Both the position numbers and the translations under genes were made by a program. Shown one piece after another: positions 1,673 to 41,398 of a stretch of 45,809 nt of DNA. The stretch comes from a phage. Under the pieces are notes generated by a model, which saw nothing but the letters and a program-made list of their open reading frames with translations, made no database searches and was not told the origin of the DNA. The stretch lies in the NCBI GenBank assembly GCA_024854585.1, contig GCA_024854585.1_4323.1; one strand, given 5' to 3'. Positions within the stretch are counted from its first letter, which is position 1, and every line of letters starts with the position of its first letter.

Positions 1673-2917
1673 CTATACTGGTTTTTGTTGTTGAGATTCA
1701 ATATCACCATCACCAATCTTAATCTCTGGTGCGATAGTACGTAGTGTATCACGGGCTTCGTTAGTATCCATAGCCCCAGCTGTAATTAGTGACGCGATGC
1801 TGTTTACGTTCTTCTCAAGAATCTCCGCCTTATCCTTGCTTGACTCCTGCGCCAGAGGGTTAAACTCAACCGACCATTCATCCACGTTAACAATGAACTT
1901 AATTAAGAACTCAAGAATAGGAAGCAATTCAGAGTTACGCTTGCGGTCAACTAGCTTATGGAATGTCTCAAGGGCTGTATTCTGGCTTGATGATACGCCA
2001 CCAACGTTCTTGTTCTTGAGGATAATTTCATGAATACCGCTCAGAGCAACGATTCTGTCAAACTTCTTATCCAGGAACGCGTCAATCCCACCAATATCAG
2101 AGTTCAGAACGCTGTATTCTTCAGACTCTGCATCAATGCCAATGGCCTGACCAACGCCGCTATTGTTGTCAACCTGTGCAAGTCGTAATCTAGCGGCACC
2201 AAATCCTTCGCTATCATCACATAACTCAGCCAGACCTTTCGCCTTCCACACTGCTTGCTGCTTGCGCTTCAGTAACTGCGTAGCCAGTCGTTCGCAGTTG
2301 GTGTAATCCTTAATTGAGTCAAGAATGTCACTTGATAGAACGCTGCGGCCCCAGCCATCATTCTGCCGACGCATTACGTTAGGAATTCGCTCTCCGTCAA
2401 TGATGTGAATGCGGCTGTAGTGCACATCGTAGAACATATCGCTTTCGTTTGTGGTGATACGATAGGTTAGCGGCTTACCAAATCGCGAGTTGCGTGGGTT
2501 CTCCTCGCGAGTTCGTACCTTTACCTGCGTACGGTCGTAAACGCGAACAGTTTCAAGCTCGGCACCTTCTCTGACCGGACTCGTTAATGCTCTATTGTCC
2601 TTAACGATAGCGACAATTGCAGCGCCGCCAAATAATCGCGCCCATGACCAAGCGTCGTTAATGTTCTGAGTCATTTCTAAATCATCCCAGCGCGACCAAA
2701 ATGCTGACTCATCATCAATACCATCAATGTGGAACCCTGCCGCTAGTGCTGTTTCCGGGATTGTGTCAATGATTCGACGCACCAGCGCATTATTCGCATA
2801 AATCGAAGCAAGAATTGTAGGGTCTTGATTCTGTAAACTCCCGTAAATCTCACTACCATCACTGCCGCCTAGAAAGATATTGGCGTAGCTGTCTGTCTTA
2901 ACCATGTTTTTCTCCAA
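1673..2917 (-). CDS. Portal protein (probable true start ATG at 2905)
   Basis: 414 aa, position between large terminase and protease/scaffold; GGAGA RBS before internal ATG. Confidence 0.6.
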   Translation of the reverse strand: MEKNMVKTDSYANIFLGGSDGSEIYGSLQNQDPTILASIYANNALVRRIIDTIPETALAAGFHIDGIDDESAFWSRWDDLEMTQNINDAWSWARLFGGAAIVAIVKDNRALTSPVREGAELETVRVYDRTQVKVRTREENPRNSRFGKPLTYRITTNESDMFYDVHYSRIHIIDGERIPNVMRRQNDGWGRSVLSSDILDSIKDYTNCERLATQLLKRKQQAVWKAKGLAELCDDSEGFGAARLRLAQVDNNSGVGQAIGIDAESEEYSVLNSDIGGIDAFLDKKFDRIVALSGIHEIILKNKNVGGVSSSQNTALETFHKLVDRKRNSELLPILEFLIKFIVNVDEWSVEFNPLAQESSKDKAEILEKNVNSIASLITAGAMDTNEARDTLRTIAPEIKIGDGDIESQQQKPV

Positions 2918-2923
2918 TAAAAA

Positions 2924-2940
2924 AGCCCCATGTAGGGGCT
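2924..2940. terminator. Hairpin agccccatgtaggggct with flanking A/T runs; terminator-RBS cassette upstream of portal
   Basis: Perfect GC stem; near-identical copy at about 38011-38029. Confidence 0.5.
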
Positions 2941-3204
2941 AGTTTATCACACGGCTTTTAATTACTCGAATTTTACTTCGAACTTGATTGTGTCGCACTT
3001 TACGCCATCCCGATCAAGCGCATATACAGTACGACCCACATTTCCGAACTCAATCACGTCAACCTCATGTCCGTTTATGTAATATCTTAGATATGGTTTT
3101 TTATTATTGTCAGTGGCTTTGGCTGCGCATTCGCTTTCAGTTAAGAAACCCTCGCCCTCTTCGCGGATATCAAACTTGTGGAATTCTCCGTTTTTTATGT
3201 AACG

Positions 3205-3393
3205 TTAACCATCATGATCATCTACGCACCAAAAATAGTTTTCATCATCAGTATCAAAACGGTTAACCCTATATTTCTTACCCACTGTGAATCCACAGTC
3301 TTCATTATCAATGTTACCAAGATATAATGCCTTTGAATAAATTGTAGTCATTTGTTTATCCCCTCTCGTTTCGATGAAGTAACTATACGCCAT
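3205..3393 (-). CDS. Small hypothetical protein; reading frame continues open for about 80 codons past its TAA stop (to about 2965)
   Basis: ORF track; likely true start at internal ATG (about 3351, MTTIYSK) after GAGAGGGG RBS; in-frame extension read directly from sequence. Confidence 0.45.
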   Translation of the reverse strand: MAYSYFIETRGDKQMTTIYSKALYLGNIDNEDCGFTVGKKYRVNRFDTDDENYFWCVDDHDG

Positions 3394-3407
3394 CCGTGGC
3401 GACTTAG

Positions 3408-3428
3408 TTTAGCAATTCGTGCTATTTA
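3408..3428 (-). promoter_or_regulatory. Palindromic early-promoter/operator motif copy (TTTAGCAATTCGTGCTATTTA on + strand)
   Basis: Contains inverted repeat TAGCA-N5-TGCTA; overlaps TerL stop codon; TATAGT-like hexamer about 20 nt toward downstream gene. Confidence 0.6.
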
Positions 3429-4987
3429 ATTCCTGCTATGCGCATTAGTCTCGCCTTAGGATCATCCGCGATGTTAAGTACAAGGTTTGCCGCCATTGTT
3501 AGACAGTCAATTTGGTCGTCGTGCTTATGCGAGTCATCTGCCGTAAAAGCCGCAACCTCAGTGAGCAATCCGTTTAGCCACGGCGATGACTCTGGAAGAA
3601 CTACGTTACCAGCCTTAATCTGTGGTAGTGCACTCATCACCCTGGTTAGCTTGTCATTATCCGGTACGTATGACTCTATCGGTGTTCGCATAACCCTGCC
3701 AGCTGATTGAATCAGGCCGATACCAGACGCTTTCTTCTCGATAATAATCTTTCTTAGGATACCATCTGACTGACTGGTTGCCCTTGATTTCTTCTCGAAG
3801 TCCAGCAGTTCAGCCTCCAACTCTGGGGCCTCCCATTTACCCCTGCGCTGATCAATAAGGTAAATCTTAGCATCTTTATAGCCCCACAACTGAAGAACAG
3901 AGAAGTCGCTGTAACTTTTAGTGGTCATTGCGGTATCGCAAGTTATGAATCGATAGTCGTACTTAGCTGGAGGTCTGAACGTATCACTGATTCGCTGGAA
4001 CCAGTCCACGTTAATTAGGTTGCCACCCAGTGCTACTGGCTCCTGCTGATATTGACTAAGGAATGTGTACGGGTCGCTATCCCACATTGCCACCAGGTCG
4101 TTTACGGATTCCTTTTTAGGAAAGTAGCTGTAGTACTTTACGCCATCTCGCTCAATGTATTCGCTGCTTAGTACGTCCTCAGCAAACTGATCTTTAATCC
4201 AGTCAGGAAGTGAATCAATGTAATCCTCAGTAACTAATGCTGGTATCTTAATCAAATCGAATTCGATACCCATGCCGCCTTCCATCATGAAATAGGTTGA
4301 GTCATTGACGTGAAGCCGCTGCTGTATCGAAATGATTGGTGTCGCTTTGCCTTTTACAGAACTGGCTCGACGTGAGCGAATCGTATTTTTAAGCATTACG
4401 TGATTATTCGATCGGTACACTGCTGATAACATATCTGCGGGTTTGTCAAAGTCATCCAAAAGAACGGCTCCGCTGTATGTTTCGGTTATGTACCCACCGC
4501 GAGCGCCAGTAATCTGGCCTCCAGCCGCCTTTGATATTGACTCAAATCTAACCTTGCCACTCTCATCAAGAACCTGAAGCTCATCGTCTTTGCAAGTGCC
4601 AAACTTGCATGGCCAGAGTGACTGAAATTCTTGAGACTTGATAAGGTCGCGTACTCGCTTCGAGTTACGCTTAACCAGGGAGTCAGCAAAAGAGATGTTA
4701 AGGTTGCGCACCTTCCTAAGCTTAACCATCGAATAGGCCGGGAAGTGGATTGAGGCAATTTCCGTCTTTCCGCTGCCTGGTGCTATGTTAATGATGGTGT
4801 CCTTGCGCTCTCCTGCGATAATCTCGTCAATTATTCTGCACAAGTACTTGTGATGCCAGTTAGGGATGTATCGCTCGCCTTGCGTGATCTGGAACCAGCA
4901 ACGAAGAAAGCCCTCGAAGCTGTGTTCTGATATCGCCTTAACGGCCATCTTTTCCTGAATGGTCATTTCTTCCCATACTAAAGACAT
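3422..4987 (-). CDS. Terminase large subunit
   Basis: 521 aa; Walker A-like NIAPGSGKTE near N-terminus; precedes portal. Confidence 0.75.
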   Translation of the reverse strand: MSLVWEEMTIQEKMAVKAISEHSFEGFLRCWFQITQGERYIPNWHHKYLCRIIDEIIAGERKDTIINIAPGSGKTEIASIHFPAYSMVKLRKVRNLNISFADSLVKRNSKRVRDLIKSQEFQSLWPCKFGTCKDDELQVLDESGKVRFESISKAAGGQITGARGGYITETYSGAVLLDDFDKPADMLSAVYRSNNHVMLKNTIRSRRASSVKGKATPIISIQQRLHVNDSTYFMMEGGMGIEFDLIKIPALVTEDYIDSLPDWIKDQFAEDVLSSEYIERDGVKYYSYFPKKESVNDLVAMWDSDPYTFLSQYQQEPVALGGNLINVDWFQRISDTFRPPAKYDYRFITCDTAMTTKSYSDFSVLQLWGYKDAKIYLIDQRRGKWEAPELEAELLDFEKKSRATSQSDGILRKIIIEKKASGIGLIQSAGRVMRTPIESYVPDNDKLTRVMSALPQIKAGNVVLPESSPWLNGLLTEVAAFTADDSHKHDDQIDCLTMAANLVLNIADDPKARLMRIAGIK

Positions 4988-5821: not shown

Positions 5822-5899
5822 TGGCACTCCGCACTGGCCTCGAACCAGTAACCTACGACTTAGAAGGTCGTTGCTGCTATCCAATTGAGCTAGCGGAGC
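5822..5899 (-). tRNA. tRNA-Arg (anticodon UCU), CCA encoded; D-arm region atypical
   Basis: Manual fold: 7-bp acceptor stem (one G-U), anticodon stem ACGAC/GTCGT with loop CTTCTAA (U33, anticodon TCT, A37), T-arm ACTGG-TTCGAGG-CCAGT; D-arm has only about 3 clean base pairs. Confidence 0.6.
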
Positions 5900-10960: not shown

Positions 10961-11235
10961 ATATCACCTCGTTGTTGCATACTGCGTTTCATTGATTGGT
11001 ATATTGCATCAGATTTACGCGTTAGTCAAAGTATTTCTTTGTATATTTTTCACCTAATACGCAAATCTGCCTCTAGCGCCGCATCATCTCTATATGTATA
11101 TTGCGCGTACGCCGTGTATACACTTTTTTACCCACCAGGCCCCATGCATGCCTATCCATTCCTACAATGTCATCCCCTTCCTACAAGCGTCAGAATATCT
11201 GCGCGGAACATATCAATTATCCCATCAATTATCGG

Positions 11236-11305
11236 TATACACAGTATACATATATATAATAATAATAATAATAATAAAGTAAAAGGTTGATATATATAGG
11301 TATTA
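11236..11305 (+). repeat. Copy 1 of about 65-bp AT-rich repeat (tatacacagta...ataataataataataa agtaaaaggttgatatatatag)
   Basis: Near-identical block at about 29674-29736. Confidence 0.7.
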
Positions 11306-11587
11306 TATTGTATATCGCGTGTATATCTCGCGTAAAAACGTAGGTTAGTGGTCGCTAACTTTTGTGACGACACTGAGTATACTTAGGATACGCGTATATC
11401 TGTGAGGTGCTCATCGAGTGGTAAAATCAACTTGTATGGTAGTCCATCCATCTTTCATTCACCCACTCACCACTTCATTTCACTCTTCGCAACAATCAAA
11501 AACATCATTGCACCTGAAGCAATATTGCTGTACGTGCAATAATCATGTTAATCATTGCAATATCTGCAATAATCCATAAATCTGACG

Positions 11588-16606: not shown

Positions 16607-17143
16607 TTATACGGCATTGGTTAGGCAAAAATTGCTATTTCTAGCTTCTTCCGTGATTTTCGTGAAACCCCATAGACTTCTCAACCTCAAGCCTGAGCTT
16701 GACAGCTGTTTCATACAATCCCCATGATAAATGTATTTTACTTTCTGCTTTCCACATTTTTCAATCCTATAGCTAACACTAGCTATCCACTTCCCCTTAT
16801 TGTTCATATACACACCATGAACACCGGATTTGTTTTTAGAATTCAACTTCATATTTTTGTGATTATCTCTATTATTAACCACTCTGAGGTTTTCAATTCT
16901 GTCATCACCTGGAACTCCATTGATGTGATCAACCTGCATCCCATTAGGTATCTCTCCATTAAACATCTCCCAGACAACCCTATTCCTTGCGTGCTTTTTG
17001 TTGTTTATTGTTATATAACAATACCCATCAAACCTAACGCTACCAGCCTTATCTCCAGGGTAGTATTTTGTGACACCTCTACCACCTTCAATCGCCCAAT
17101 AAAGAAATCCGTCTTCATAATTAAAATAATAATGCCAATTCAT
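16607..17143 (-). CDS. HNH homing endonuclease with AP2-like domain
   Basis: HARNRVVWEM...DHINGVPGDDRIENLRVVNNRDNHKN then GVHGVYMNNKGKWIASV; 3-prime end runs through a degenerate motif copy. Confidence 0.75.
   Translation of the reverse strand: MNWHYYFNYEDGFLYWAIEGGRGVTKYYPGDKAGSVRFDGYCYITINNKKHARNRVVWEMFNGEIPNGMQVDHINGVPGDDRIENLRVVNNRDNHKNMKLNSKNKSGVHGVYMNNKGKWIASVSYRIEKCGKQKVKYIYHGDCMKQLSSSGLRLRSLWGFTKITEEARNSNFCLTNAV
16621..16640 (-). promoter_or_regulatory. Degenerate motif copy inside 3-prime end of HNH gene
   Basis: ttaggcaaaaattgctattt; followed by hairpin gccgcatttatacggc and CATAAT-like hexamer. Confidence 0.35.
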
Positions 17144-23866: not shown

Positions 23867-23888
23867 CTTAGCAATTCGTGCTATTTTA
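23867..23888 (-). promoter_or_regulatory. Motif copy in minus-gene orientation with no minus-strand gene to drive (module-boundary remnant?)
   Basis: cttagcaattcgtgctatttta sits 20 nt upstream of tailspike ATG. Confidence 0.4.
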
Positions 23889-29366: not shown

Positions 29367-29673
29367 TTCTGCATCTCTCTATGGTTGATTGCTTTCGATT
29401 AGTTAACTATATAGTCAGCGCCATAGCCAGTCCAATTGGTTTTGCCAATCGTTGATTTAAGTTTACGTGTGAATGCTTGTAATTCCGTGTAGGCATTGCC
29501 ACTTGTTACGTAAAATGGCATCTCAGCCCAGATATAGCTCAATGTAACCATCGTGTATATCGTGTATACCGTTTCTTGCAGAGGGGTGAATTGGTATAGC
29601 TGCCACGCAATACTGTATAAATCCACATGATATTAAAATTATAACCGGAACACTCTATGGAAGTAGTTACATG

Positions 29674-29736
29674 ATATACACAGTAATATATATAATAATA
29701 ATAATAAGAGTAAAAGGTTGATATATATAGATATTT
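29674..29736 (+). repeat. Copy 2 of about 65-bp AT-rich repeat
   Basis: atatacacagtaatatatataataataataataagagtaaaaggttgatatatatag. Confidence 0.7.
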
Positions 29737-29854
29737 TAATGTAACTAATGCGTAAATTGGCGTAACAGCGCGTATATCATTTTTCGCGGATGAGATTGCA
29801 TACATCGAGTTACATCGGTTACGTGTAACTGTGATTTGTGGTGAATTTGGAGAT

Positions 29855-29875
29855 AAATAGCACGATTTGCTAAAG
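29855..29875 (+). promoter_or_regulatory. Motif copy in + orientation (aaatagcacgatttgctaaag)
   Basis: Upstream of 29981..30652. Confidence 0.5.
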
Positions 29876-30733: not shown

Positions 30734-30979
30734 ATGACTAACTTAATCAAATCAGCAATCATCGCAGCAGCAGTAATCATGGCAGTTGGTTGCTCTTCAG
30801 GTCCTCGTCCGGATGGTTGGTGTGCAACTCAAGCAAATGGTGTGTGCGTAGCTAAATGGAAGGGTGGTGTAGTTGTTCCGGCTGGCGAGGTTGATATTCG
30901 CTACGCTGGCATTGAAAGCAAAGCTGGCGGCGGTTACGGAGGTTCTGTTGCAGATCATGGCAGCAAGGAGTGGAAATAA
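30734..30979 (+). CDS. Small lipoprotein, possibly Cor-like superinfection-exclusion protein (track ORF starts 30659)
   Basis: [22 protein letters not shown]: signal peptide with lipobox; about 81 aa; placed next to tail fibre genes. Confidence 0.45.
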
Positions 30980-31972: not shown

Positions 31973-34900
31973 TTACCACACTCCAACTACCACTCTTCCT
32001 CCGTTAGGTAAGTTTACAGTGATTCCGTTATTGTTAATCTGAACCGTGTTATTGGTTCCGTTAAATGCGAAGTTACCATTATTGGCATACAGTTTACCCC
32101 TTACAGTGGCGTTACTAAATTCCGCACTTCCTGACTTGTCAATCGCCCATCCTTGAGAGCCAGCAACGTAGTTGTTAGATTGAATCCTGTTACCAATCTT
32201 CGCGTTAGTAATTGAGCCATCGCCAATTACCGCACTTTGGATGATTACGTTTCCGTTCTCGACAACGAAGGGGAGCTGCCACTGACCGGATCCAGAACCA
32301 ATGCCGTTACTGATTGCGAATCTGTTTGCGTCAAAAATAAACTGACTGCGAACGTTTCCACCAGTGCCAACTAGCTCCATACTCATGCCGGATGAGTAAT
32401 TCTGTCCGTTATATTTAAGACCTAAACTGATTCCGTATTGCACGCCAGTAGATGTCGCATTGGAGAATGCGTCTAACTTCTGGTTTATGGCCGCCTCGTT
32501 ATCACCCAATCTTGCTGATAGAGCCGTGTCTGCAGTGGTCCTTGCTTCTGTCTCGGTGGCTAGCGCTGTCTGAACTTCTGTAATCGATGCTACAACTTCA
32601 TCATCTATCTGCGCTTTAAGAGCTGTGAGAGCCTCTACTCGCGCCTGAGTTTCATCAGCTATGAGATTCACTGCCTGAACATATTCAGCCTTACGTTTGC
32701 CGTTCTCCTTGGTCATGCGGCGAACATCGGAATCATTAGCTAATGCATTCTCAAGAATTGACTCTGCCTGATTCTGAATGTCCTGATTCTTTTGAATCGC
32801 ATTCTGCTCTAGGTATTTAAAACCCTCCGAGCCTTCAATATCAACCTTGATATAATCGTTGATGATGTTGGCGTCGTCAGTACTCATACCTCTAGCGAAA
32901 TAAGACCAATCAGAGGTATTGCCGATTCTGTCAATCAATCTTGCGCGATACCAGATGACCTTACCCGGCTGAATTGGCGTGTGCCAGTATTCATAGGCTG
33001 GATAAGGCAGTAACGTCAGCAAACTTGCGTTATCAGGATTGTAAGTACCATCACCATTATCTGGAACCTGCTGAAGTTCAGTGTAAGCAGTATCACCAGA
33101 TCCTTCAGGAAATCCCCATTTAACACGGATGCCAAATACCTCATCAGTTGATGCAGTGATAACTGTAGGCGCAGATGGGCGGCCAATCTTACCAGTTAGC
33201 GATACAGTTACAATATCAGACCAGGCAGACACGTTTTCAGTATCTGATACGCTGCGAACCCTAACGTCATAGATTCCTGCGTAAATACCTTCGATATCAA
33301 CTTCTGTGCTTGCTGTTCTGGGTACGTTAATCCAGTTACCATTTTCTTTTCTCCATTGAACATTGTATGTTTTAGCGTATGGCGCTTTATCCCACCCGAT
33401 AACCATCGTCTCAACTGATAACCCCTGAACAACCTTACTATAACTTGAAACGGTCAGGTTTTCTGGTGGCGACAATCTGTCAGGTTCCACAATTGAAGTC
33501 GGGCGGTCAGCAATGTTAACGCCGTAGTCAATCTCGTCATACTTGTTAGGGTCGTACTCTACCGCAGTAATCGTATACTGGAATGAGTCCTTACCATCAG
33601 TATCTGCTTTTTGAATACCGGTAACAACATACTGCTGAAGTGCCAGATTATCCTTATCAATTGCGAACACAGTATCAGGTTGAGCTACAAAGCTAAAAGC
33701 AGTATTCAGGTTGATGGTTCTACCATCTTCCGAAATGCTGGCAATAGTTCTCGCTTCAGGATTTCCGTCAGGCTTATTCAGAAGAATCCTGTCACCCGGA
33801 GCTGCGTCAACTTTAAATGGGGTAAAAACCTGCAACCCCTGAACTGATTCAATACGACCTGAAAGGTTTAACTGATAGTTGCTCGACCATGCAGCATCAT
33901 TGACCGCAATCACCTCGCCAATCATCGGAATCATGCCCTCCAACCCAGTGGTGAAGCTGATAGTTTCGCTTCTCAGGTTGGTTTTCAGGAGCCATCTGCC
34001 GCGTCTGTTTGCTTCACTTCTCCGCGTACATCCAATTGCCGTAAGGTCGACTGGATTAAATCCGAATCTGCGAGTAGCTTCCAGTTCAAATACCGGCTCA
34101 ACATCCTGCTGATAGTTGTTCTCCACATCATCAAACTGAACGTTTGCCGTGGTGTAAAGGCTTTTATCACTGGCGAAGGTTCGACTGAACAATCCGTTTA
34201 CAACGTTATCATTGGTGAAGATGTAGGATGGATTACGAGGCTTATCAACTACGATACCAATCTTTTCGCCATCATAGAAAGTCAGGCCACGGAAGATCGA
34301 ACAGATATCACGAATTAGCGTGTAAGCCTCAACTTTATTCTGCACAACCATATCGCACAGGTAGCGCGGCTCCACGCCGCCTTTTCCATCTGGAACCATT
34401 TGGTCACAGAATTGCGCAGCTTCGTACAGACCCCACTTATCAATCTCCACACCCAGATCTCTCTGATCAAGACCGTAGCGGCGGTTTGTCACTAAGTCAT
34501 AAAGAACCCACGCAGGGTTATTTGACCATGCCATTTTAAATAGACCATTCCATGTGCCACTATAAGTTCTGCTTTCAGGGTCATAGTTTGTAGGAACCTG
34601 AATCAACTTCCATCGCTTCTTGATAGAGATTGTCGGGATACCGTTAGGAAAAAGGTCAGAGCCAAACTCAACGTAAACAAGAGCTGTAAGCGGATAGCGG
34701 AATTTAGCGTCAATTACTTCCTGATAGGTTGTAATCTGCATCCCGTTAACCAGGGTGCTACTTGTTGAATCTGGTGTAATCTTGCGGATGCGAACCAGTG
34801 CGCTATCAAATTCAGCCGGAAGGTTCACGCGAATGCTTCGGTCGTAACCTGTAGTGGTCTTCCCGTTTGCAACTCCGCGAGTGTATTCCTGATATGATCC

Positions 34901-35398
34901 ACCATTAACAGACAGGTCAATCGCGTACTCGCAAGTAGTTCCGTTCAGATCTCCATTGCTTTCTTGCTTAACTAGTCGAGGCCAGAATAGCTTAACTCGA
35001 ATCGCTGAAAGCTGAGTATTGTTAACCGCAATGATGTACGGGGTATTGTTCGTGATTTCTCTGGATGCCTGAATCTCTGAGTTAGCACCATCAAGGCCAG
35101 CGATATAGTCCTGATACTGCGTGCCGGCACGGAACTCAGCGCGAACACCTTCGTAGTTGTAGCTACCATCCTGGTTTTGCACAGGAACATCAGCAAGGTA
35201 TAAATCCTTCATTGAGAAATTTGGGTCAACCTCACCATCAGCAACCGCCAAAAGAACCTTAACCTTGTTAAGTGAAATTAGGTTATCTTCCTGTTCCACT
35301 GGTTGATGCTGCTTCTGGCTACCGCCTTTAGCACCATAAATCTTAATCTCTTCAGCCATATCACAAAGCCTCATGTTTGTTTTGATCATTTGTGCCAT
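31973..35398 (-). CDS. Central tail fibre / tail tip host-specificity protein (lambda J-like)
   Basis: 1141 aa; last and largest gene of tail module after I-like gene. Confidence 0.75.
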   Translation of the reverse strand: MAQMIKTNMRLCDMAEEIKIYGAKGGSQKQHQPVEQEDNLISLNKVKVLLAVADGEVDPNFSMKDLYLADVPVQNQDGSYNYEGVRAEFRAGTQYQDYIAGLDGANSEIQASREITNNTPYIIAVNNTQLSAIRVKLFWPRLVKQESNGDLNGTTCEYAIDLSVNGGSYQEYTRGVANGKTTTGYDRSIRVNLPAEFDSALVRIRKITPDSTSSTLVNGMQITTYQEVIDAKFRYPLTALVYVEFGSDLFPNGIPTISIKKRWKLIQVPTNYDPESRTYSGTWNGLFKMAWSNNPAWVLYDLVTNRRYGLDQRDLGVEIDKWGLYEAAQFCDQMVPDGKGGVEPRYLCDMVVQNKVEAYTLIRDICSIFRGLTFYDGEKIGIVVDKPRNPSYIFTNDNVVNGLFSRTFASDKSLYTTANVQFDDVENNYQQDVEPVFELEATRRFGFNPVDLTAIGCTRRSEANRRGRWLLKTNLRSETISFTTGLEGMIPMIGEVIAVNDAAWSSNYQLNLSGRIESVQGLQVFTPFKVDAAPGDRILLNKPDGNPEARTIASISEDGRTINLNTAFSFVAQPDTVFAIDKDNLALQQYVVTGIQKADTDGKDSFQYTITAVEYDPNKYDEIDYGVNIADRPTSIVEPDRLSPPENLTVSSYSKVVQGLSVETMVIGWDKAPYAKTYNVQWRKENGNWINVPRTASTEVDIEGIYAGIYDVRVRSVSDTENVSAWSDIVTVSLTGKIGRPSAPTVITASTDEVFGIRVKWGFPEGSGDTAYTELQQVPDNGDGTYNPDNASLLTLLPYPAYEYWHTPIQPGKVIWYRARLIDRIGNTSDWSYFARGMSTDDANIINDYIKVDIEGSEGFKYLEQNAIQKNQDIQNQAESILENALANDSDVRRMTKENGKRKAEYVQAVNLIADETQARVEALTALKAQIDDEVVASITEVQTALATETEARTTADTALSARLGDNEAAINQKLDAFSNATSTGVQYGISLGLKYNGQNYSSGMSMELVGTGGNVRSQFIFDANRFAISNGIGSGSGQWQLPFVVENGNVIIQSAVIGDGSITNAKIGNRIQSNNYVAGSQGWAIDKSGSAEFSNATVRGKLYANNGNFAFNGTNNTVQINNNGITVNLPNGGRVVVGVW

Positions 35399-35439: not shown

Positions 35440-36012
35440 TTAAGCATTATCTTCAGCGTAGCTGCCGGCACTAAACACAGAGCCGCCAACCGTTCGATAA
35501 CCATAAGGTAGGCAAACTGGATATCCAGCGGCAACCGTGTTTACTGCGGATCCGAATGCGTAAGAGGCCTTGTTGCTTGTTTGGTTGTCCTGGGTCTTTA
35601 GTCCTGTTGCTTGTGGTGATAGTAGCTGAGCAATGCCGCCAGCAGCCAGAGAAACACCAGCGCCAACAAGATAAATCTGCCCGGTAAAGATACCAACCGT
35701 GATAAGGGCCGCACCTAAAATTGTCTGAAACAAGCCGCCGGACTTGCGACCCTGGGGGATTGGCAAGATGCGTATCTCCTGAACGGCACTAAAATCAGAG
35801 ATTCGATGCTCGTTCACATTTTTGCCATCAACGAAAACGGCGTACCTTGCGTTCTGACCGACATGGCTATTCATGAATTCTTTGAATGCTGGAATCTGTG
35901 AGCATAGTGCTCGCATAGCTTCTGGAACGCTGCTCACCGCCATCTGGTGAATCTTTCCAAACTTACGGCCTAGAGACAAGCCTAACTTAATGTCAATCAG
36001 TTTCTGGGTCAT
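35440..36012 (-). CDS. Tail assembly protein (lambda I-like)
   Basis: 190 aa; C-terminal Gly/Ala-rich hydrophobic segment; position between K-like and J-like. Confidence 0.6.
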   Translation of the reverse strand: MTQKLIDIKLGLSLGRKFGKIHQMAVSSVPEAMRALCSQIPAFKEFMNSHVGQNARYAVFVDGKNVNEHRISDFSAVQEIRILPIPQGRKSGGLFQTILGAALITVGIFTGQIYLVGAGVSLAAGGIAQLLSPQATGLKTQDNQTSNKASYAFGSAVNTVAAGYPVCLPYGYRTVGGSVFSAGSYAEDNA

Positions 36013-36775
36013 AGCTTACATCCTCTTGTAAGTCCTTGTGGCGAACGATTCGCGCAGTGCGCTCTCGCCAGTAATCGGAGTAGATATCAACTGAGCTCAT
36101 TTTACCATAAAGGTGATGAATGAATCTGTTATTGCCAATGTAGATTCCAGCGTGGTTTGTCACCTCACTTTGCACCTGCATCATGATCATTGAGCCAATG
36201 GGAATGTCCGAAGTTTTTACCAGCTCAAATCCTTCATTAATCCAGTTGTCGTCATAGATATTTTCATTGTAACGTTTCTCCCACCACGGGTAATTAACTC
36301 GGTAGTCATTCAGTTTGATGCCGTATTTCTTGTGAAATTCCATTACTAACCCCCAGCAGTCAAAGCTACCAAGCCCCCACGGGCGACCAATCAGAGGCAT
36401 AGTTGATGGCTCAAGAATGCGCATATCTCCCTCCGGGATGCTTACGATAACGTAAGGAATCTCGCACTCGTTACAGCTACAGATATCCGCAGGACTGGGT
36501 CTTGTTGTGGCACCATCACCAGTGTGAGAGTGAACTACGTAAACAATAGATTCATTGTGAGCCAACTCAAAGAGGATATCTGCATACTCATTTGAGTCAA
36601 GGATGAATTCATTCTCAGGATCTTTGCTTGCATTGGTGATTCTGTGATACTTCTGGGCCCGACCCTTCTGCGTGACAACTCCACAGCACTCATGCGGGTA
36701 AACCTCTTTTGCGTGCTTGAATATTTCCAGTTTAACTTTTGGTGTTAACATTTTATCTCCAATAAAAAAGGCCAA
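35993..36775 (-). CDS. Tail tip assembly protein (lambda K-like; JAB/MPN plus NlpC/P60 domains); probable true start ATG at 36751
   Basis: HSHTGDGATTRPSPAD (JAMM H-x-H...S..D motif) and C-terminal Cys...His NlpC/P60-like region. Confidence 0.7.
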   Translation of the reverse strand: MAFFIGDKMLTPKVKLEIFKHAKEVYPHECCGVVTQKGRAQKYHRITNASKDPENEFILDSNEYADILFELAHNESIVYVVHSHTGDGATTRPSPADICSCNECEIPYVIVSIPEGDMRILEPSTMPLIGRPWGLGSFDCWGLVMEFHKKYGIKLNDYRVNYPWWEKRYNENIYDDNWINEGFELVKTSDIPIGSMIMMQVQSEVTNHAGIYIGNNRFIHHLYGKMSSVDIYSDYWRERTARIVRHKDLQEDVSYDPETD

Positions 36776-36809
36776 CCTTTCGATTGACCTAGTTTAACAC
36801 TAATTTAGC

Positions 36810-37163
36810 TTATTCAAAATAAACCTCAAAATCTATAAATACTGAAACACCTCTTGATTTAAGCATCTCAACTTCCAGTAGTTTATCATCAAAGAATGAC
36901 TTAGTGACATCAACACCATTCATTCGATATTTCATCTTGTTATCATGCTCGTCTAATGCCTTGCTCTGAGTATCAATTCTTGAAAAGTCGTAACAAGAAT
37001 CATGAAAAATACTTTTAAACTTTACAATATTGCCATTCTCATCATACGTCTGATAGTATCTGTTTGAGTCAACAACACTACATGGGTAATTACGGCCAAC
37101 AAAAAACAAACCAGCGCACTCTTCTTTGTCTTTTTTGTATCCGTTAAATTTAATTTGGAACAT
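36810..37163 (-). CDS. Moron-like hypothetical protein inserted between L-like and K-like tail genes
   Basis: 117 aa; has its own motif copy plus TATAGT hexamer and GAGAGG leader upstream, unlike flanking tail genes. Confidence 0.5.
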   Translation of the reverse strand: MFQIKFNGYKKDKEECAGLFFVGRNYPCSVVDSNRYYQTYDENGNIVKFKSIFHDSCYDFSRIDTQSKALDEHDNKMKYRMNGVDVTKSFFDDKLLEVEMLKSRGVSVFIDFEVYFE

Positions 37164-37219
37164 TTTTTAACTCCTCTCGTTTGTGTGAAGTAACTATACG
37201 CCACATTTTCCTGCACGTC

Positions 37220-37240
37220 TTTATCAAAAAGTGCTATTTA
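37220..37240 (-). promoter_or_regulatory. Variant motif copy (tttatcaaaaagtgctattta)
   Basis: Overlaps stop of L-like gene; drives moron 36810..37163. Confidence 0.5.
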
Positions 37241-38005
37241 ACTCTGATTCGCTTTAGCCTGAAGGCTTGCTGCTGCGCATCCACCAAATGAAAGTTGATT
37301 ATTCTCTCCGAATCTAATCTTGCAGCTATTAACAGTCCCGGCGCAGAAGTCCAATGAAGTGTCTGCCACTGGCTCATCATCCTTATTGAAGTATCTGTTG
37401 CCAGCATAGTCGCAACCATTACCGCTACGATACCAACCCCTAGAAGCCCAATAGCAAACAGACTGAACAAGTCTAGCGGGGATATAAATGCCATCCATAT
37501 CCATTGGGCTACTTAGCTCAAATGATGCCGTCTTGTAATCAACCTGCTTTGGTCGCTCAATGAAGTAAACGAATCGGCGATAATCACCATCAGCAATACT
37601 TCCGTCTTCATTGATGTTATCTCGCGTAGTAATCCAGATGGTAACCTTAGCTTTAACAAGTCCGTTGTATGTTCGAATCAATGCGCTAATGCGCTGGTCT
37701 ACGTTTGATACTGTTAGCGTAACTTTGTTGGCCTTGCCGTCAGAGGTCATATTGATGCCCGATATTCCGAACGGTCTTGGTCCATACTCTTCTCCACGGA
37801 AGGTTATGGTTTTCTCTGGTAGCGGATCACCACTCATCTGGGCTAGCATGATTTCTTCTGGCGTGTATGAAATGTTCTCATTATGGAACGAATAAACGAG
37901 AGAGCCAAAGGAGGTTCCGTCAACCTGGATTAGAGTCACAATCTCTCCAGGGAAAAGGCTTTGCAACTGATTTTCAAACTTTGGACTTAACATATATTTC
38001 TCCAA
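37238..38005 (-). CDS. Minor tail protein (lambda L-like, Cys-rich C-terminus); probable true start ATG at 37993
   Basis: 255 aa; C-terminal cysteines (CYWASRGW...GCDY...DFCAG...SCKI...GGCAA) consistent with L-type Fe-S motif. Confidence 0.6.
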   Translation of the reverse strand: MEKYMLSPKFENQLQSLFPGEIVTLIQVDGTSFGSLVYSFHNENISYTPEEIMLAQMSGDPLPEKTITFRGEEYGPRPFGISGINMTSDGKANKVTLTVSNVDQRISALIRTYNGLVKAKVTIWITTRDNINEDGSIADGDYRRFVYFIERPKQVDYKTASFELSSPMDMDGIYIPARLVQSVCYWASRGWYRSGNGCDYAGNRYFNKDDEPVADTSLDFCAGTVNSCKIRFGENNQLSFGGCAAASLQAKANQS

Positions 38006-38010
38006 TAAAA

Positions 38011-38029
38011 AAGCCCCATATAGGGGCTT
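38011..38029. terminator. Hairpin agccccatataggggct; second copy of terminator-RBS cassette
   Basis: Near-identical to 2924..2940. Confidence 0.5.
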
Positions 38030-38032
38030 AGT

Positions 38033-38410
38033 TTAACGCATTGAGCTAAAGACTTCCACGAATTGCATGTTTACAGTCTGAACTTCGCTACTGATTGGTG
38101 TAACTGAAATGCTATCCTGCTGAATAACAAACATTGATGTATCACCTTGCGGCGTAGTCCAGAAAAATGGAGTAATGATGTGGTTGAAGCAAAAGTCCAT
38201 CACATCGCGCCAGTCCTTGTTAGTGTAAGTCATCTGATAACTGCGCTTGTTGCTGCGGTAGCCGCCAGTACCTCTTTGCTCAAAACCATTGCCAAAGCTA
38301 ACAATTCTCACGTTGTTCGTGTTAGAAAATGCAGCCCCTCCATTTTGTATCTGAGTACAAAAATTAAACGTATCTAGAGCCATAAAAATCCTCAGGGGCC
38401 GAAGCCCCAT
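38033..38410 (-). CDS. Minor tail protein (lambda M-like / distal tail)
   Basis: 125 aa directly after tape measure. Confidence 0.5.
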   Translation of the reverse strand: MGLRPLRIFMALDTFNFCTQIQNGGAAFSNTNNVRIVSFGNGFEQRGTGGYRSNKRSYQMTYTNKDWRDVMDFCFNHIITPFFWTTPQGDTSMFVIQQDSISVTPISSEVQTVNMQFVEVFSSMR

Positions 38411-38413
38411 TAA

Positions 38414-41398
38414 TTAGTTGAATCCACGAAGGTAAGCATACGCCTTTCCACCCTGCTGGAAGGACTGAGAAATCTCTTCAGCTACGATTGCCTTAACGCC
38501 ATTTTGCAGCGCCTTGGCCTGTTCTGGATCGCTTCCAATCCCACTATTAACGTTAACAGTAATCCCGCTAACATTAACATCTGCGCCTCCAGAAACCAAG
38601 CCACCATTCGCATAACCAGAAGGGCCACCAACAACACCGCCATTTGCGTAACCTTTCATTAGTGCGTAAAGGTTTTTCACACCGATTCGGCTTGTCGCTT
38701 CTTTTGTGAATACAAACTCGCCACGGTGAACCGTACCTGCTGGCTGATATTTTCCACCATCACCAGTGTAGCCGCCACCAGCGAAACCAATTGCTGACTT
38801 TATTGACTCGAAAGCGCTACCTGCACCAGCGTCACCACCAAAGCTCTTGATTGTAGATTCAATAGCCTTAACCAAAAGTAATTGAGTTGCAATCTTGGCA
38901 ATCATTTTGAGGATGTTTGCTGTGAACTCCCTGAAATTGGCCTCACCAGTGGTTACAAGGTTAGTGATTTGCTCTGTAATCCCGTCGAATGCCGCAACTG
39001 TCAAGTCCTTAGCAATCTGGTTGTAGTCAGTGTACTTCTCTGTCAAGTCGGCGAGAGTGGATGTTACACCGGATTGCCAGTCTGACCTAAGATTATCCTC
39101 CTGCTTGTAGTATTCCTTTCTTGCTTCCAGCAACTGCTGAAAATCAACATCATCAAGAGAGCCGCCAGCATTAACCTGATTGGACTGAAGAGCCTGAATC
39201 TCTCTTGCCCTCTGTTGCTCACGAGATGATAACCCAGCACCTAAGTCGATGTTACTTGCTTCATTGTTAATCTGAAGAATCTTCTTGCGGTTATCTTCAG
39301 CTAACTTATTAGCTCGCTCCTGCAAAACAATCTGATCACCTAGCTCAGCCTTCTGTCTGGCTAACTCAAGAACTTTATCCTTTTCAATGAGAAGTCTTGC
39401 TTGCTCTTTGGTAATTGAGCCATCAAGTTGTCTCTGCTCAAGAATCCTGAATTTGGCCTCCTCCTGAAGATACTGCTTGCGCTCATTGCTTATTACTGCG
39501 CCAATATCCCTGTTTTCCTGAAGCACCTTGAGTTGAGCCTGAAGCGCCAGAACGCCAGATTCATAACCAATTGTTAAATCTCTTTGCTCCTTAACCCTAC
39601 TATTTTCTTCTTTCCTGTTCTTCTTGATCGCATCAAGCTCATCCTGAAGCGCCTTCTTCCTTTTTGCAAATTCCTCATCAGTACCTGACTGCTCATTGGT
39701 ATTCTGATTTTCTCTGCGAGTAACGTAACCAAGCTCTCCCTCTCTGATTCTGGCATCTCGCTCCTTGATAGACTTCTCTAGCTCAAGGTTTTGCTTCTTG
39801 GCGGCATCGATAATCTTCTGCTGCCCCTTGATAACATCATCACCAACGCCATCAAGACCAGGAATGTTCTGCAATGCCTGAGTTGCGCTAATTACGAATT
39901 CGCCAATCAGAACATCACCCTGGTTAATGAATACCCTGATCTGTTCAATCGTTCCGGCGATTACATCAACAAAAAGGTTTAGCGCCCCAACCGTTCTACG
40001 ACTAATTGCATCCCAGATATCAGAGATGTACTTTCTGAAATCATTCCAGGCTAGCTCAAGCGGAGTTAACTGCGCAGCTATGTCGTTAAGGTTGGCTTCC
40101 TGAGACTTGCTGAAAATATCAATCGCAGCAGTAACGGCCTCAACTTCTCCCTTTGTCTTTCTCAGGTTTTCGATTGTCGTCAACTGCCCCTGTGTGAGGA
40201 AGTTAAAGCGCTTATCCAAATCAACTAAACCCTGGATTGGGTCGCTTGCAATCTGGTTATAGTAACCAGTAATCTCCTTCGCATCCTTACCTGTCAACTG
40301 CGCCCATCTGGCGGTTGATTTGGTAATCTTGTCAATCTGCGTCAGCGTAAGGTTCCCTTGCTCAATAAGGCTTGTTGCGATGCTAGTCACAAGTCCTCTG
40401 GTTGCACCAGTAGCATCAGAAACAGAGCTAACCAACTCTCTAACCTGCGAGATTGATGCGATTGTGGAGTTGTTTGAGAACGCAATGGCGGAATTTAATG
40501 CTCTGAATTCACTCTCTGCCTGGGCAGCACCGATACCTAGAGCAACAAGCGCGCCACCCAAAACCCCAACAGCAACATTGAATGGATTTAAGGCTGCAAG
40601 CGCGAATCTAAAGGTGTTACCAATACCTCCAAATGCATCCTTAATTTGTCCGCCTTGCTGAATTGCAATAAGCCAAATCGGAATGCCGCCAGCAAGTGAT
40701 GTCCCAATATCTGTAATCTGCGCTGGCAATTGAGAGATTGCAGCCTTGTATTGACCTGCGCTTAAGCCAGAGCGTTGAAAGGCCTTGCTCTGAGCAATTA
40801 GCTGGGTGTTTGCCTTCCGTGATGCATCGGCGATTCTGTCAATAATAGGTGCTGCCTGAGAACTAACGCCAAGTTGTGCTGCTTGTAACTTTAAGTACTC
40901 CTCACGCGTCAATGTCGCTGCCTGAGCCTGCCTCTCAAGTGATGCAATGAATCTATCCGCTTCAGCCTTTGCTTTTGCTTTATCTTTTGCAGCCTGAGCA
41001 GCAGCTCTTCCCTCTTCAGTTAGCGCAGCACGTGAACGAGCGAGTTTTGCATTCTGCGTTTCAAGAGCCTCACCTAATCTGAAAAACTCCTCGTCGGGAA
41101 CTACGCCAGCCGCGAATGCCTTATCCAGACCTACAGCAGCCTCTTGCAGCTTGCGGAACTTTGCAGCCGTTGGGTCGATAGCTGTTTGCAATTTAGCTAA
41201 AGATGCTTGCTGTTCAGCCAGTGCGCGAGCTGTGTCTCTTGCCTGGTTTTTAGCAACCTGCTCAGCATTGACGAATTCACTAATGCCGGAAGCGGCTTGC
41301 TGGTTAGCTTGCCTGAACTTCTGTAGGGATTGCGTGCCCCTGTCTACTTGCGAGACGTCTACGGCTAGTGTGATTCCGGCTAATTCATTTGTTGCCAT
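38414..41398 (-). CDS. Tail tape measure protein
   Basis: 994 aa; long Ala/Gln/Lys/Glu-rich coiled-coil, Gly-rich C-terminus; follows G/GT chaperones. Confidence 0.8.

Follow-up and report, generated by a model that had tools for sequence, protein, structure and literature searches.

A probable moron-type cassette at the L-K tail-gene junction of a T1-like phage

The moron concept of Hendrix and Juhala was developed for lambdoid phages, with lom and bor of lambda and the morons of HK97 as examples, and classical morons have been described in temperate phages, where they are expressed from the prophage. The open reading frame considered here (ORF117, for its 117 codons) resembles the lambdoid morons in being an extra gene whose two neighbours adjoin each other in relatives, in lying inside the late/tail region, and in having its own upstream promoter-like element, an intrinsic terminator at its 3' end and a differing base composition. 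The relatives of the phage that carries it have been described as virulent T1-like phages (PMC7718038). Unlike the lambdoid morons, ORF117 belongs to a phage that is presumably virulent and has no prophage, so any benefit would have to fall in lytic growth; its putative promoter is the phage's own recurrent module and not a foreign sigma-70 promoter; and its family is confined to the Drexlerviridae and not imported from bacteria, with no match to ORF117 among complete E. coli genomes.

A second group of described elements consists of free-standing homing endonuclease genes and the PeSL-type cassettes, reportedly termed 'mobile regulatory cassettes' of T4-type phages by Arbiol et al. in 2010. 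With these ORF117 shares the combination of a single ORF with a stem-loop and a promoter motif that recurs, as well as insertion between conserved genes, variable presence and apparent recombination at repeated regulatory sequences. It differs from them in having no nuclease motif and in that its regulatory motif is unrelated in sequence and its mobility by way of the module is putative. Searches with Pfam, PHROG and NCBIfam, together with fold searches, found no nuclease of the HNH, GIY-YIG, LAGLIDADG or similar type in ORF117, and a homing endonuclease identity was ruled out on the absence of a nuclease motif.

A third comparison is structural. Gp54 of phage Bas11 (PDB 9axb) is the second trigger of the defence protein CapRel-SJ46 (PMC11578894). 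Both Gp54 and ORF117 are small accessory proteins of Drexlerviridae phages, and Gp54 is itself non-essential. The likeness is one of predicted structure only, and SH3-like barrels are common; identity is 16%, and a profile search of PDB sequences, run at E values up to 10, detected no sequence homology, returning chance-level matches among which 9axb was absent. Gp54 is a single domain of 66 aa while ORF117 has an additional conserved ββαβ domain, and the genomic location of Gp54 is unlike that of ORF117. The described group to which ORF117 can be compared without any family-level difference is the protein family phrog_14592.

The locus and the layout of the cassette

The window, i.e., the whole stretch of 45,809 nucleotides that was analysed, is essentially the whole genome of a T1-like siphovirus in which the tail genes lie on the minus strand. 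Positions 35900–38100 are 88–90% identical to the Escherichia phages SCS31, SU57, ACG-M12 and ECH1 (Drexlerviridae, Braunvirinae), and the phage that hosts ORF117 is a Guelphvirus/Rtpvirus-like member of the Drexlerviridae. The preliminary description had placed a 117-aa ORF at 36810..37163, where it would interrupt the conserved order M-L-K-I-J. The coordinates are right, the strand, which had not been given, is minus, and Pfam matches of the neighbouring products confirm an interrupted order of M-L-ORF117-K-I-J. From 5' to 3' on the minus strand, the features are:

38414..41398, minus strand: tape measure gene, assigned from an order and length as in annotated relatives, without a Pfam scan
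38033..38410, minus strand: M (Pfam Phage_min_tail)
37238..38005, minus strand: L (Pfam Phage_tail_L, E 4e-44), with its stop codon at 37240-37238
37237-37220, minus strand: upstream box ATAGCACTTTTTGATAAA, its first base directly after the L stop codon, a degenerate palindrome TAGCA-N5-TGATA
37198-37193, minus strand: −10-like hexamer TATAGT, inside the conserved GTATAGTTAC, with 85% identity to a repeat copy at 3352-3392
37171..37192, minus strand: conserved leader TACTTCACACAAACGAGAGGAG, containing the Shine-Dalgarno sequence
37178-37171, minus strand: Shine-Dalgarno sequence GAGAGGAG, 7 nt 5' of the ORF117 ATG
36810..37163, minus strand: ORF117, 117 aa, ATG at 37163-37161 and TAA at 36812-36810
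36760..36790, minus strand: intrinsic terminator, a 9-bp hairpin (36790-36769) followed by the U-run UUUUUUAUU
35993..36751, minus strand: K (Pfam Prok-JAB and NlpC/P60), likely start ATG 36751
35440..36012, minus strand: I (Pfam Lambda_tail_I)
31973..35398, minus strand: J (Pfam FNIII-A_GpJ, Phage-tail_3 and Phage_Tail_Tip)

The ORF list started K at a TTG at 36775, a position that falls within the terminator hairpin. Because K homologues are 252 aa long, this start is probably wrong and the ATG at 36751 is probably the correct one. An Rfam scan of the window returned a single tRNA, which lies away from ORF117.

Downstream of the L stop codon, the minus strand reads through the box ATAGCACTTTTTGATAAA, a 21-nt spacer, GTATAGTTAC and the leader TTCACACAAACGAGAGGAG with its Shine-Dalgarno sequence. 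The three elements previously reported upstream of the ORF, a motif copy, a TATAGT hexamer and a leader, are thus all present when read on the minus strand. In its general form the module consists of a box ATAGCAC-N4-TGNTAAA, then TATAGT, then the leader ACGAGAGGAG. The box occurs 17 times in the window at ≤1 mismatch, compared with 0–3 matches in each of 10 shuffles even at ≤2 mismatches. Fifteen of the 17 copies stand 57–89 nt 5' of a co-oriented start codon, the copy at 29857 is 124 nt from one, and the one ORF that follows the copy at 23884, of 43 codons, is doubtful. Genes that follow the other copies encode a DNA helicase, a primase, an Erf-like annealing protein, an anti-repressor-like protein, an HNH endonuclease and a lipoprotein, along with many ORFs of 60–75 aa. 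The late region (~19 kb of packaging, head and tail genes) holds only two box copies, that of ORF117 and one at 3425, and both stand ahead of phrog_14592 genes. The statement that the motif is typical of 'early' genes is therefore true at the level of sequence, the other copies preceding replication and small-ORF units, and from position and recurrence we infer that the module is probably an active, specifically early promoter. Among divergent cassettes the box, the −10 hexamer and the leader are kept and the spacer is variable; every homologous L-K cassette has retained the box.

The spacing of the module is unusual. No −35 element was found 16–18 nt from TATAGT, and a consensus promoter scan made no call at the module. 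The distance from TTGATA to TATAGT is 23 nt at ORF117 and 22 nt in most other copies, a spacing of 22–23 nt that rules out a canonical sigma-70 −35/−10 pair. A sigma-54 promoter was also rejected, as the spacing of TAGCAC-N4-TGC is wrong, the GG is missing and the element lies ~45 nt from the likely start. With TATAGT taken as the −10, the centre of the palindrome TAGCA-N5-TGCTA falls near −42, about where the activator sits in class II promoters, and by this analogy an activator acting at the palindrome is a lead and not a result. A literature search returned nothing relevant on promoter mapping or on morons in the Drexlerviridae.

At the opposite end, the preliminary description had not included the terminator, which lies 19 nt 3' of the ORF117 stop codon (hairpin −13.7 kcal/mol, z −4.3); its conservation extends to every homologous locus. 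Directly 3' of the U-run come GGAGA (36760-36756), the ribosome-binding site of K, and then the K ATG at 36751, and the 3' end of the cassette supplies this ribosome-binding site. In the proposed mechanism, the module would drive transcription of ORF117 alongside the replication and small-ORF genes and independently of the late tail transcript, and the terminator would confine the ORF117 transcript and may also attenuate late read-through into K-I-J. It is very probable that the module and the terminator, with the single ORF and its ribosome-binding site between them, form a self-contained cassette of moron architecture between L and K.

Distribution among relatives and a history apart from the tail genes

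By alignment, the cassette spans ~477 nt, from 37237 to 36761, i.e., from the L stop codon to the K ribosome-binding site. A homologue occupies the L-K junction in phages ACG-M12, SCS31, ECH1, SU57, phiEB49, BEK6, G8 and AugustePiccard as well as in metagenomic contigs. In CEB_EC3a the gap between L and K is 10 nt, and the deletion in the alignment coincides exactly with the limits of the cassette; in the DSM 12242 isolates (44.2-kb), Jk06, AHP24, C119 and others, the match is ~480 nt shorter than the L/K query. Two relatives carry other genes in place of the homologue, an HNH endonuclease gene at the L-K junction of JulesPiccard and an opposite-strand Rha-like gene at that of IME253. At least 80% of the L/K query was covered in 11 of 687 matching phage records, and among 50,697 phage records tblastn located an ORF117 homologue in 15, with the L-K position in 10 of these. 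A scan of IMG/VR for ORF117 returned only phiEB49 itself. Universal presence in relatives, which had been named beforehand as a sign of a structural role, was not what the synteny comparison across L-K found: the gene is not universal, and most relatives are without the cassette at precisely its boundaries.

The cassette also stands apart from its flanks in composition and divergence. ORF117 has a GC content of 32.2%, compared with 44.3% for the window and 43–49% for the tail genes, and a GC content this low is reached in just 0.5% of 354-nt windows. Against ACG-M12, dS is 0.066 for ORF117 and 0.63–1.22 for M, L, K and I, with nucleotide identities of 96–98% for ORF117 and 87–89% for the flanking tail genes. 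Against phiEB49, dS is 0.48 for ORF117, 1.5 for I and 2.6 for K (M and L were not computable). A mosaic appears in the comparison with AugustePiccard and a metagenomic contig, L010, in which the N-terminal domain is 58–61% identical, the C-terminal domain and terminator 77–88% and the flanks 88–91%. The decoupled dS values and the mosaic identity show lateral replacement of the whole cassette or of parts of it. These comparisons show a history separate from that of the flanking tail genes, with lateral exchange by recombination, and they show a swapping of the N-terminal domain between alleles, with the C-terminal domain and terminator kept.

Across all comparisons dN/dS is 0.19–0.59 for ORF117 and 0.02–0.15 for the tail genes, and in the ACG-M12 comparison the value for ORF117 is about ten times the tail-gene level. 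As estimated from these ratios, selection on ORF117 is purifying, although far more relaxed, or more diversifying, than that acting on the tail proteins. Such a pattern of divergence would not be expected for a tail part that co-evolves with L and K.

The same ratios bear on whether ORF117 is a gene at all. The stretch might be a regulatory spacer only, as it is rich in AT, a composition that makes long ORFs less frequent yet still possible by chance, and Pfam gave no match. Against this, the family comprises 43 clusters at 90% identity that keep a full-length frame down to 45% identity, no comparison gives a dN/dS as high as 1, the Shine-Dalgarno sequence has ideal spacing and the predicted AF2 fold is confident; conservation effectively refutes the spacer-only reading, which retains almost no credibility.

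The reading of ORF117 as a moron, put forward in the preliminary description, is accepted here because ORF117 is an extra gene between genes that adjoin each other elsewhere, has its own promoter-like element and terminator, deviates in composition and has an independent history; synteny, module, terminator, GC and the separate history support both its architecture and its accessory status. As an accessory gene, ORF117 would be dispensable for tail assembly. The explanation taken as a whole, a moron-type cassette in a virulent T1-like phage with the expression and role proposed here, is reasonably probable, and it is held with moderate confidence.

The phrog_14592 family at three late-gene junctions

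Residues 1–117 of ORF117 align with positions 1–116 of the 116 positions of the phrog_14592 profile (E 1.9e-41). The earlier remark that the product has no recognisable motif therefore holds for Pfam, NCBIfam and PADLOC, whose scans returned nothing usable, and fails for phrog_14592, of which ORF117 is a member (E 2e-41 when rounded). The family extends to two further late-gene junctions. The M-L gene of JulesPiccard belongs to it, as do the TerL-portal gene of Opt-79 and its relatives and the small TerL-portal gene of IME253 and RobRod40, which is annotated as a 'virion structural protein'; rtp22 of phage Rtp lies at the TerL-portal junction, as does the small gene of IME253 and RobRod40. Members from the L-K, M-L and TerL-portal junctions have the same module upstream and the same two-domain layout, and 14 residues are invariant over the three junction types. 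Two additional features of the window relate to this family:

2916..3425, minus strand: second cassette, at the TerL-portal junction, with a box at 3425-3408, an ORF at 3351..2962 and a terminator at 2940-2916
38029-38011: lone terminator at the M-L junction, 92% identical to the terminator at 2940-2916 and with the same UUUUUUAUUGGAGAAA tail

The paralogue at 3351..2962 (minus strand) matches phrog_14592 with an E value of 3e-30 and the ORF117 profile with 4e-6. Because its frame is broken by a TAA at 3207-3205, at a position that is Tyr in the RobRod40 homologue, it is a pseudogene or the product of a sequencing error. The lone terminator at the M-L junction may be the leftover of a lost cassette. 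Contig L010 carries an N-terminal domain of the TerL-portal type fused to a C-terminal domain of the L-K type, a fusion that indicates domain shuffling between paralogues.

The HNH genes that relatives carry at the TMP-M and L-K junctions have the same box, so the module looks like a portable promoter for anything inserted into the late operons, and the repeated module and terminator/RBS sequences would act as recombination handles that move such cassettes. A rival reading is that the cassette brings the phage no benefit by way of its protein and is instead selfish filler spread by recombination at the module or terminator, or that occupancy of L-K destroys the target of a homing endonuclease, such as the HNH gene of JulesPiccard, and guards the genome in co-infection. 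Relatives do have free-standing HNH genes with the same box at these junctions, there are signs that the cassette has been transferred laterally, and the nonsense codon in this genome's own paralogue suggests weak selection on the protein. Set against these points are dN/dS values of 0.19–0.59, which amount to purifying selection across deep divergence, the 14 residues that are invariant over three junction types, a frame that is intact in 43 of 43 database clusters, and Pfam, PHROG and NCBIfam searches that found no nuclease motif. On this balance a selfish or junction-guarding element is very unlikely.

The L-K, M-L and TerL-portal junctions represent tolerated insertion points with a ready promoter/terminator frame, which would be useful for the engineering of T1-like phages. 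By itself ORF117 is routine, one more accessory gene in a well-sampled phage family that has already been catalogued as a PHROG; of greater interest are the by-products of the analysis, a portable and oddly spaced promoter-like module and the cassettes of one family that shuttle among three late-gene junctions. A bolder generalization can be formulated from these, in which phrog_14592 is the cargo of Drexlerviridae-specific promoter-ORF-terminator cassettes that hop among L-K, M-L and TerL-portal, and from phage to phage, through recombination at the module, the products, with a fast-evolving Gp54-like barrel on a conserved ββαβ scaffold, are counter-defence or decoy proteins that CapRel-type immune sensors of the host have come to recognise in their turn, and the module represents an activator-dependent promoter class new for T1-like phages. 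As a single package this is speculative and quite unlikely to be right.

The predicted product and its possible role

ORF117 encodes a product of 13.9 kDa (pI 5.4) with no signal peptide, transmembrane or hydrophobic segment. The AlphaFold (AF2) model has a pLDDT of 79 overall and 88 for the C-terminal domain alone. In it, residues 1–63 form a predicted five-strand SH3-like/Gp54-like barrel whose β1-β2 loop is long, residues 64–76 a variable linker, and residues 77–117 a ββαβ domain. We infer that the product is probably a soluble cytoplasmic two-domain protein.

A role in the particle has been assumed in annotation. The label 'virion structural protein' is attached by RefSeq to phiEB49 gp37, to the ACG-M12 homologue and to the TerL-portal paralogues, and it has been copied by PHROGs; it traces to phiEB49 gp37. 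In line with the label, ORF117 could be an optional virion component, its C-terminal ββαβ domain anchoring it to the tail tip or head and its SH3-like N-terminal domain either exposed, for decoration or adhesion, or delivered with the DNA. All three insertion sites lie inside morphogenetic operons, and a conserved C-terminal domain with a variable N-terminal one fits a design of an anchor plus a variable head. The labels themselves carry little weight, however, as mass spectrometry of T1-like virions also lists replication proteins; for purified virions of Sfin-1, shotgun LC-MS/MS also listed a helicase, a primase and a holin (PMC6714547). Further, the gene is missing from most of the relatives whose L, K, I and J proteins are near-identical, the family adjoins head genes and tail genes alike, the promoter-like module is that of the non-structural genes and not that of the structural operon, and neither dS nor dN/dS follows the values of the tail genes. 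A virion component is therefore unlikely, and synteny and divergence both speak against annotating the product as a 'virion structural protein' or a 'putative tail fiber protein'.

As an accessory protein, ORF117 would most likely act by protein binding in conflicts of the phage with its host or with other phages, as a factor of counter-defence, host takeover or exclusion. The variable SH3-like barrel, which resembles Gp54 of Bas11 in the model, would bind the target, and the conserved ββαβ domain may mediate oligomerisation. A function as a conflict protein is a tentative assignment, plausible while falling somewhat short of probable. As a small and fast-evolving family, phrog_14592 offers candidates for screens for anti-defence genes or defence triggers. 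The ORF117 gene is unmentioned in the papers on ACG-M12, Rogue1, AHP24 and SU57.

Small-protein representatives of the family numbered about 14 among 1.84 billion. Matches in repetitive proteins of 900–3750 aa, which covered only residues ~16–95, were judged to reflect a YD-repeat-like β-hairpin resemblance rather than homology.

Recurrence and geometry of the promoter-like module

The promoter-like module recurs at 17 sites in the window, including positions 3425, 7451, 8115, 8925, 9897, 11589, 12244, 17215, 19547, 19838, 22334, 22826, 28203, 29857, 30649 and 37237. Its geometry is unusual, with a palindrome (TAGCA-N5-TGCTA) located 22-23 nt upstream of the TATAGT hexamer and centred at approximately -42, and a conserved leader, CATCGAAACGAGAGG, following TATAGT. 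A -35 element at canonical spacing was not found in the recurrent module within the window, and the module might represent an activator-dependent promoter class. The late operon is without the recurrent module, and the two copies in the late region both precede phrog_14592 genes.

Cassettes and inserted genes at late-gene junctions

A second cassette of the phrog_14592 family, consisting of module, open reading frame and terminator, lies between the packaging gene TerL and the portal gene.

Features of the TerL-portal junction
3422..4987, TerL, flanking gene
2916-3425 (-), second cassette
3425-3408 (-), module
3351..2962 (-), ORF paralogous to the 117-aa ORF between the tail genes L and K (ORF117)
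2940-2916 (-), terminator
1673..2917, portal, flanking gene

The paralogue is interrupted by an in-frame TAA at 3207-3205, a position occupied by tyrosine in the RobRod40 homologue, and is therefore either a pseudogene or the product of a sequencing error. A solo terminator at the M-L junction (38005-38035), located at 38029-38011 (-), is 92% identical to the terminator 3' of this paralogue, and the UUUUUUAUUGGAGAAA junction is common to both. As JulesPiccard possesses a phrog_14592 gene at the M-L junction, the solo terminator in the window could be a trace left by a cassette that has since been lost.

Other genes occupy the same type of location in relatives (ACG-M12, IME253, JulesPiccard and phiEB49), in which TMP-M and L-K are the junctions with an inserted gene for a free-standing HNH endonuclease. 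The same box precedes these inserted genes and the HNH endonuclease gene of the window (16607..17143), and the intergenic junctions of the tail operon therefore look like hot spots where mobile genes carrying the module insert.

The L-K cassette and the start of K

The box of the L-K cassette in the window (37220-37237) belongs to a TTTT/TGATA subtype, while every other L-K cassette examined has GAAT (AAAT in one contig, L015) and TGCTA. Because the subtype differs and the promoter is 78% identical to that of the ACG-M12 cassette, compared to 96-98% for the ORF, the sequences suggest that a recombination breakpoint lies downstream of the box and upstream of the -10. Downstream, the mechanical ORF call places the start of K at TTG 36775, within the terminator hairpin; the true start is likely ATG 36751, which has GGAGA just 5' and agrees with the 252-aa homologues.

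In an exhaustive search, a hairpin in ORF117 (residues ~35-72, RYYQTYDENGNIVKF) matched repeats of repetitive proteins of 900-3750 aa, which we read as YD-repeat-like mimicry, not homology.

Additional features of the window

An AT-rich repeat (TACACAGTATACATATATATAATAATAATAA...AGTAAAAGGTTGATATATATAG) is present in two copies (11229-11312 and 29668-29743) 18.4 kb apart, which flank the replication/small-gene block, are surrounded by divergent transcription and could be origin-like or regulatory regions. An 81-aa ORF (30734..30979 (+)) with a lipoprotein-type signal and an upstream module copy matches phrog_4281 (no assigned function) and, judged by position, could encode a Cor-like exclusion lipoprotein or spanin component. 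T1-like phages have been reported to carry an arginyl tRNA, and the window contains a tRNA gene (5825-5899 (-)), detected with Rfam at 50.6 bits, 5' of the small terminase gene.
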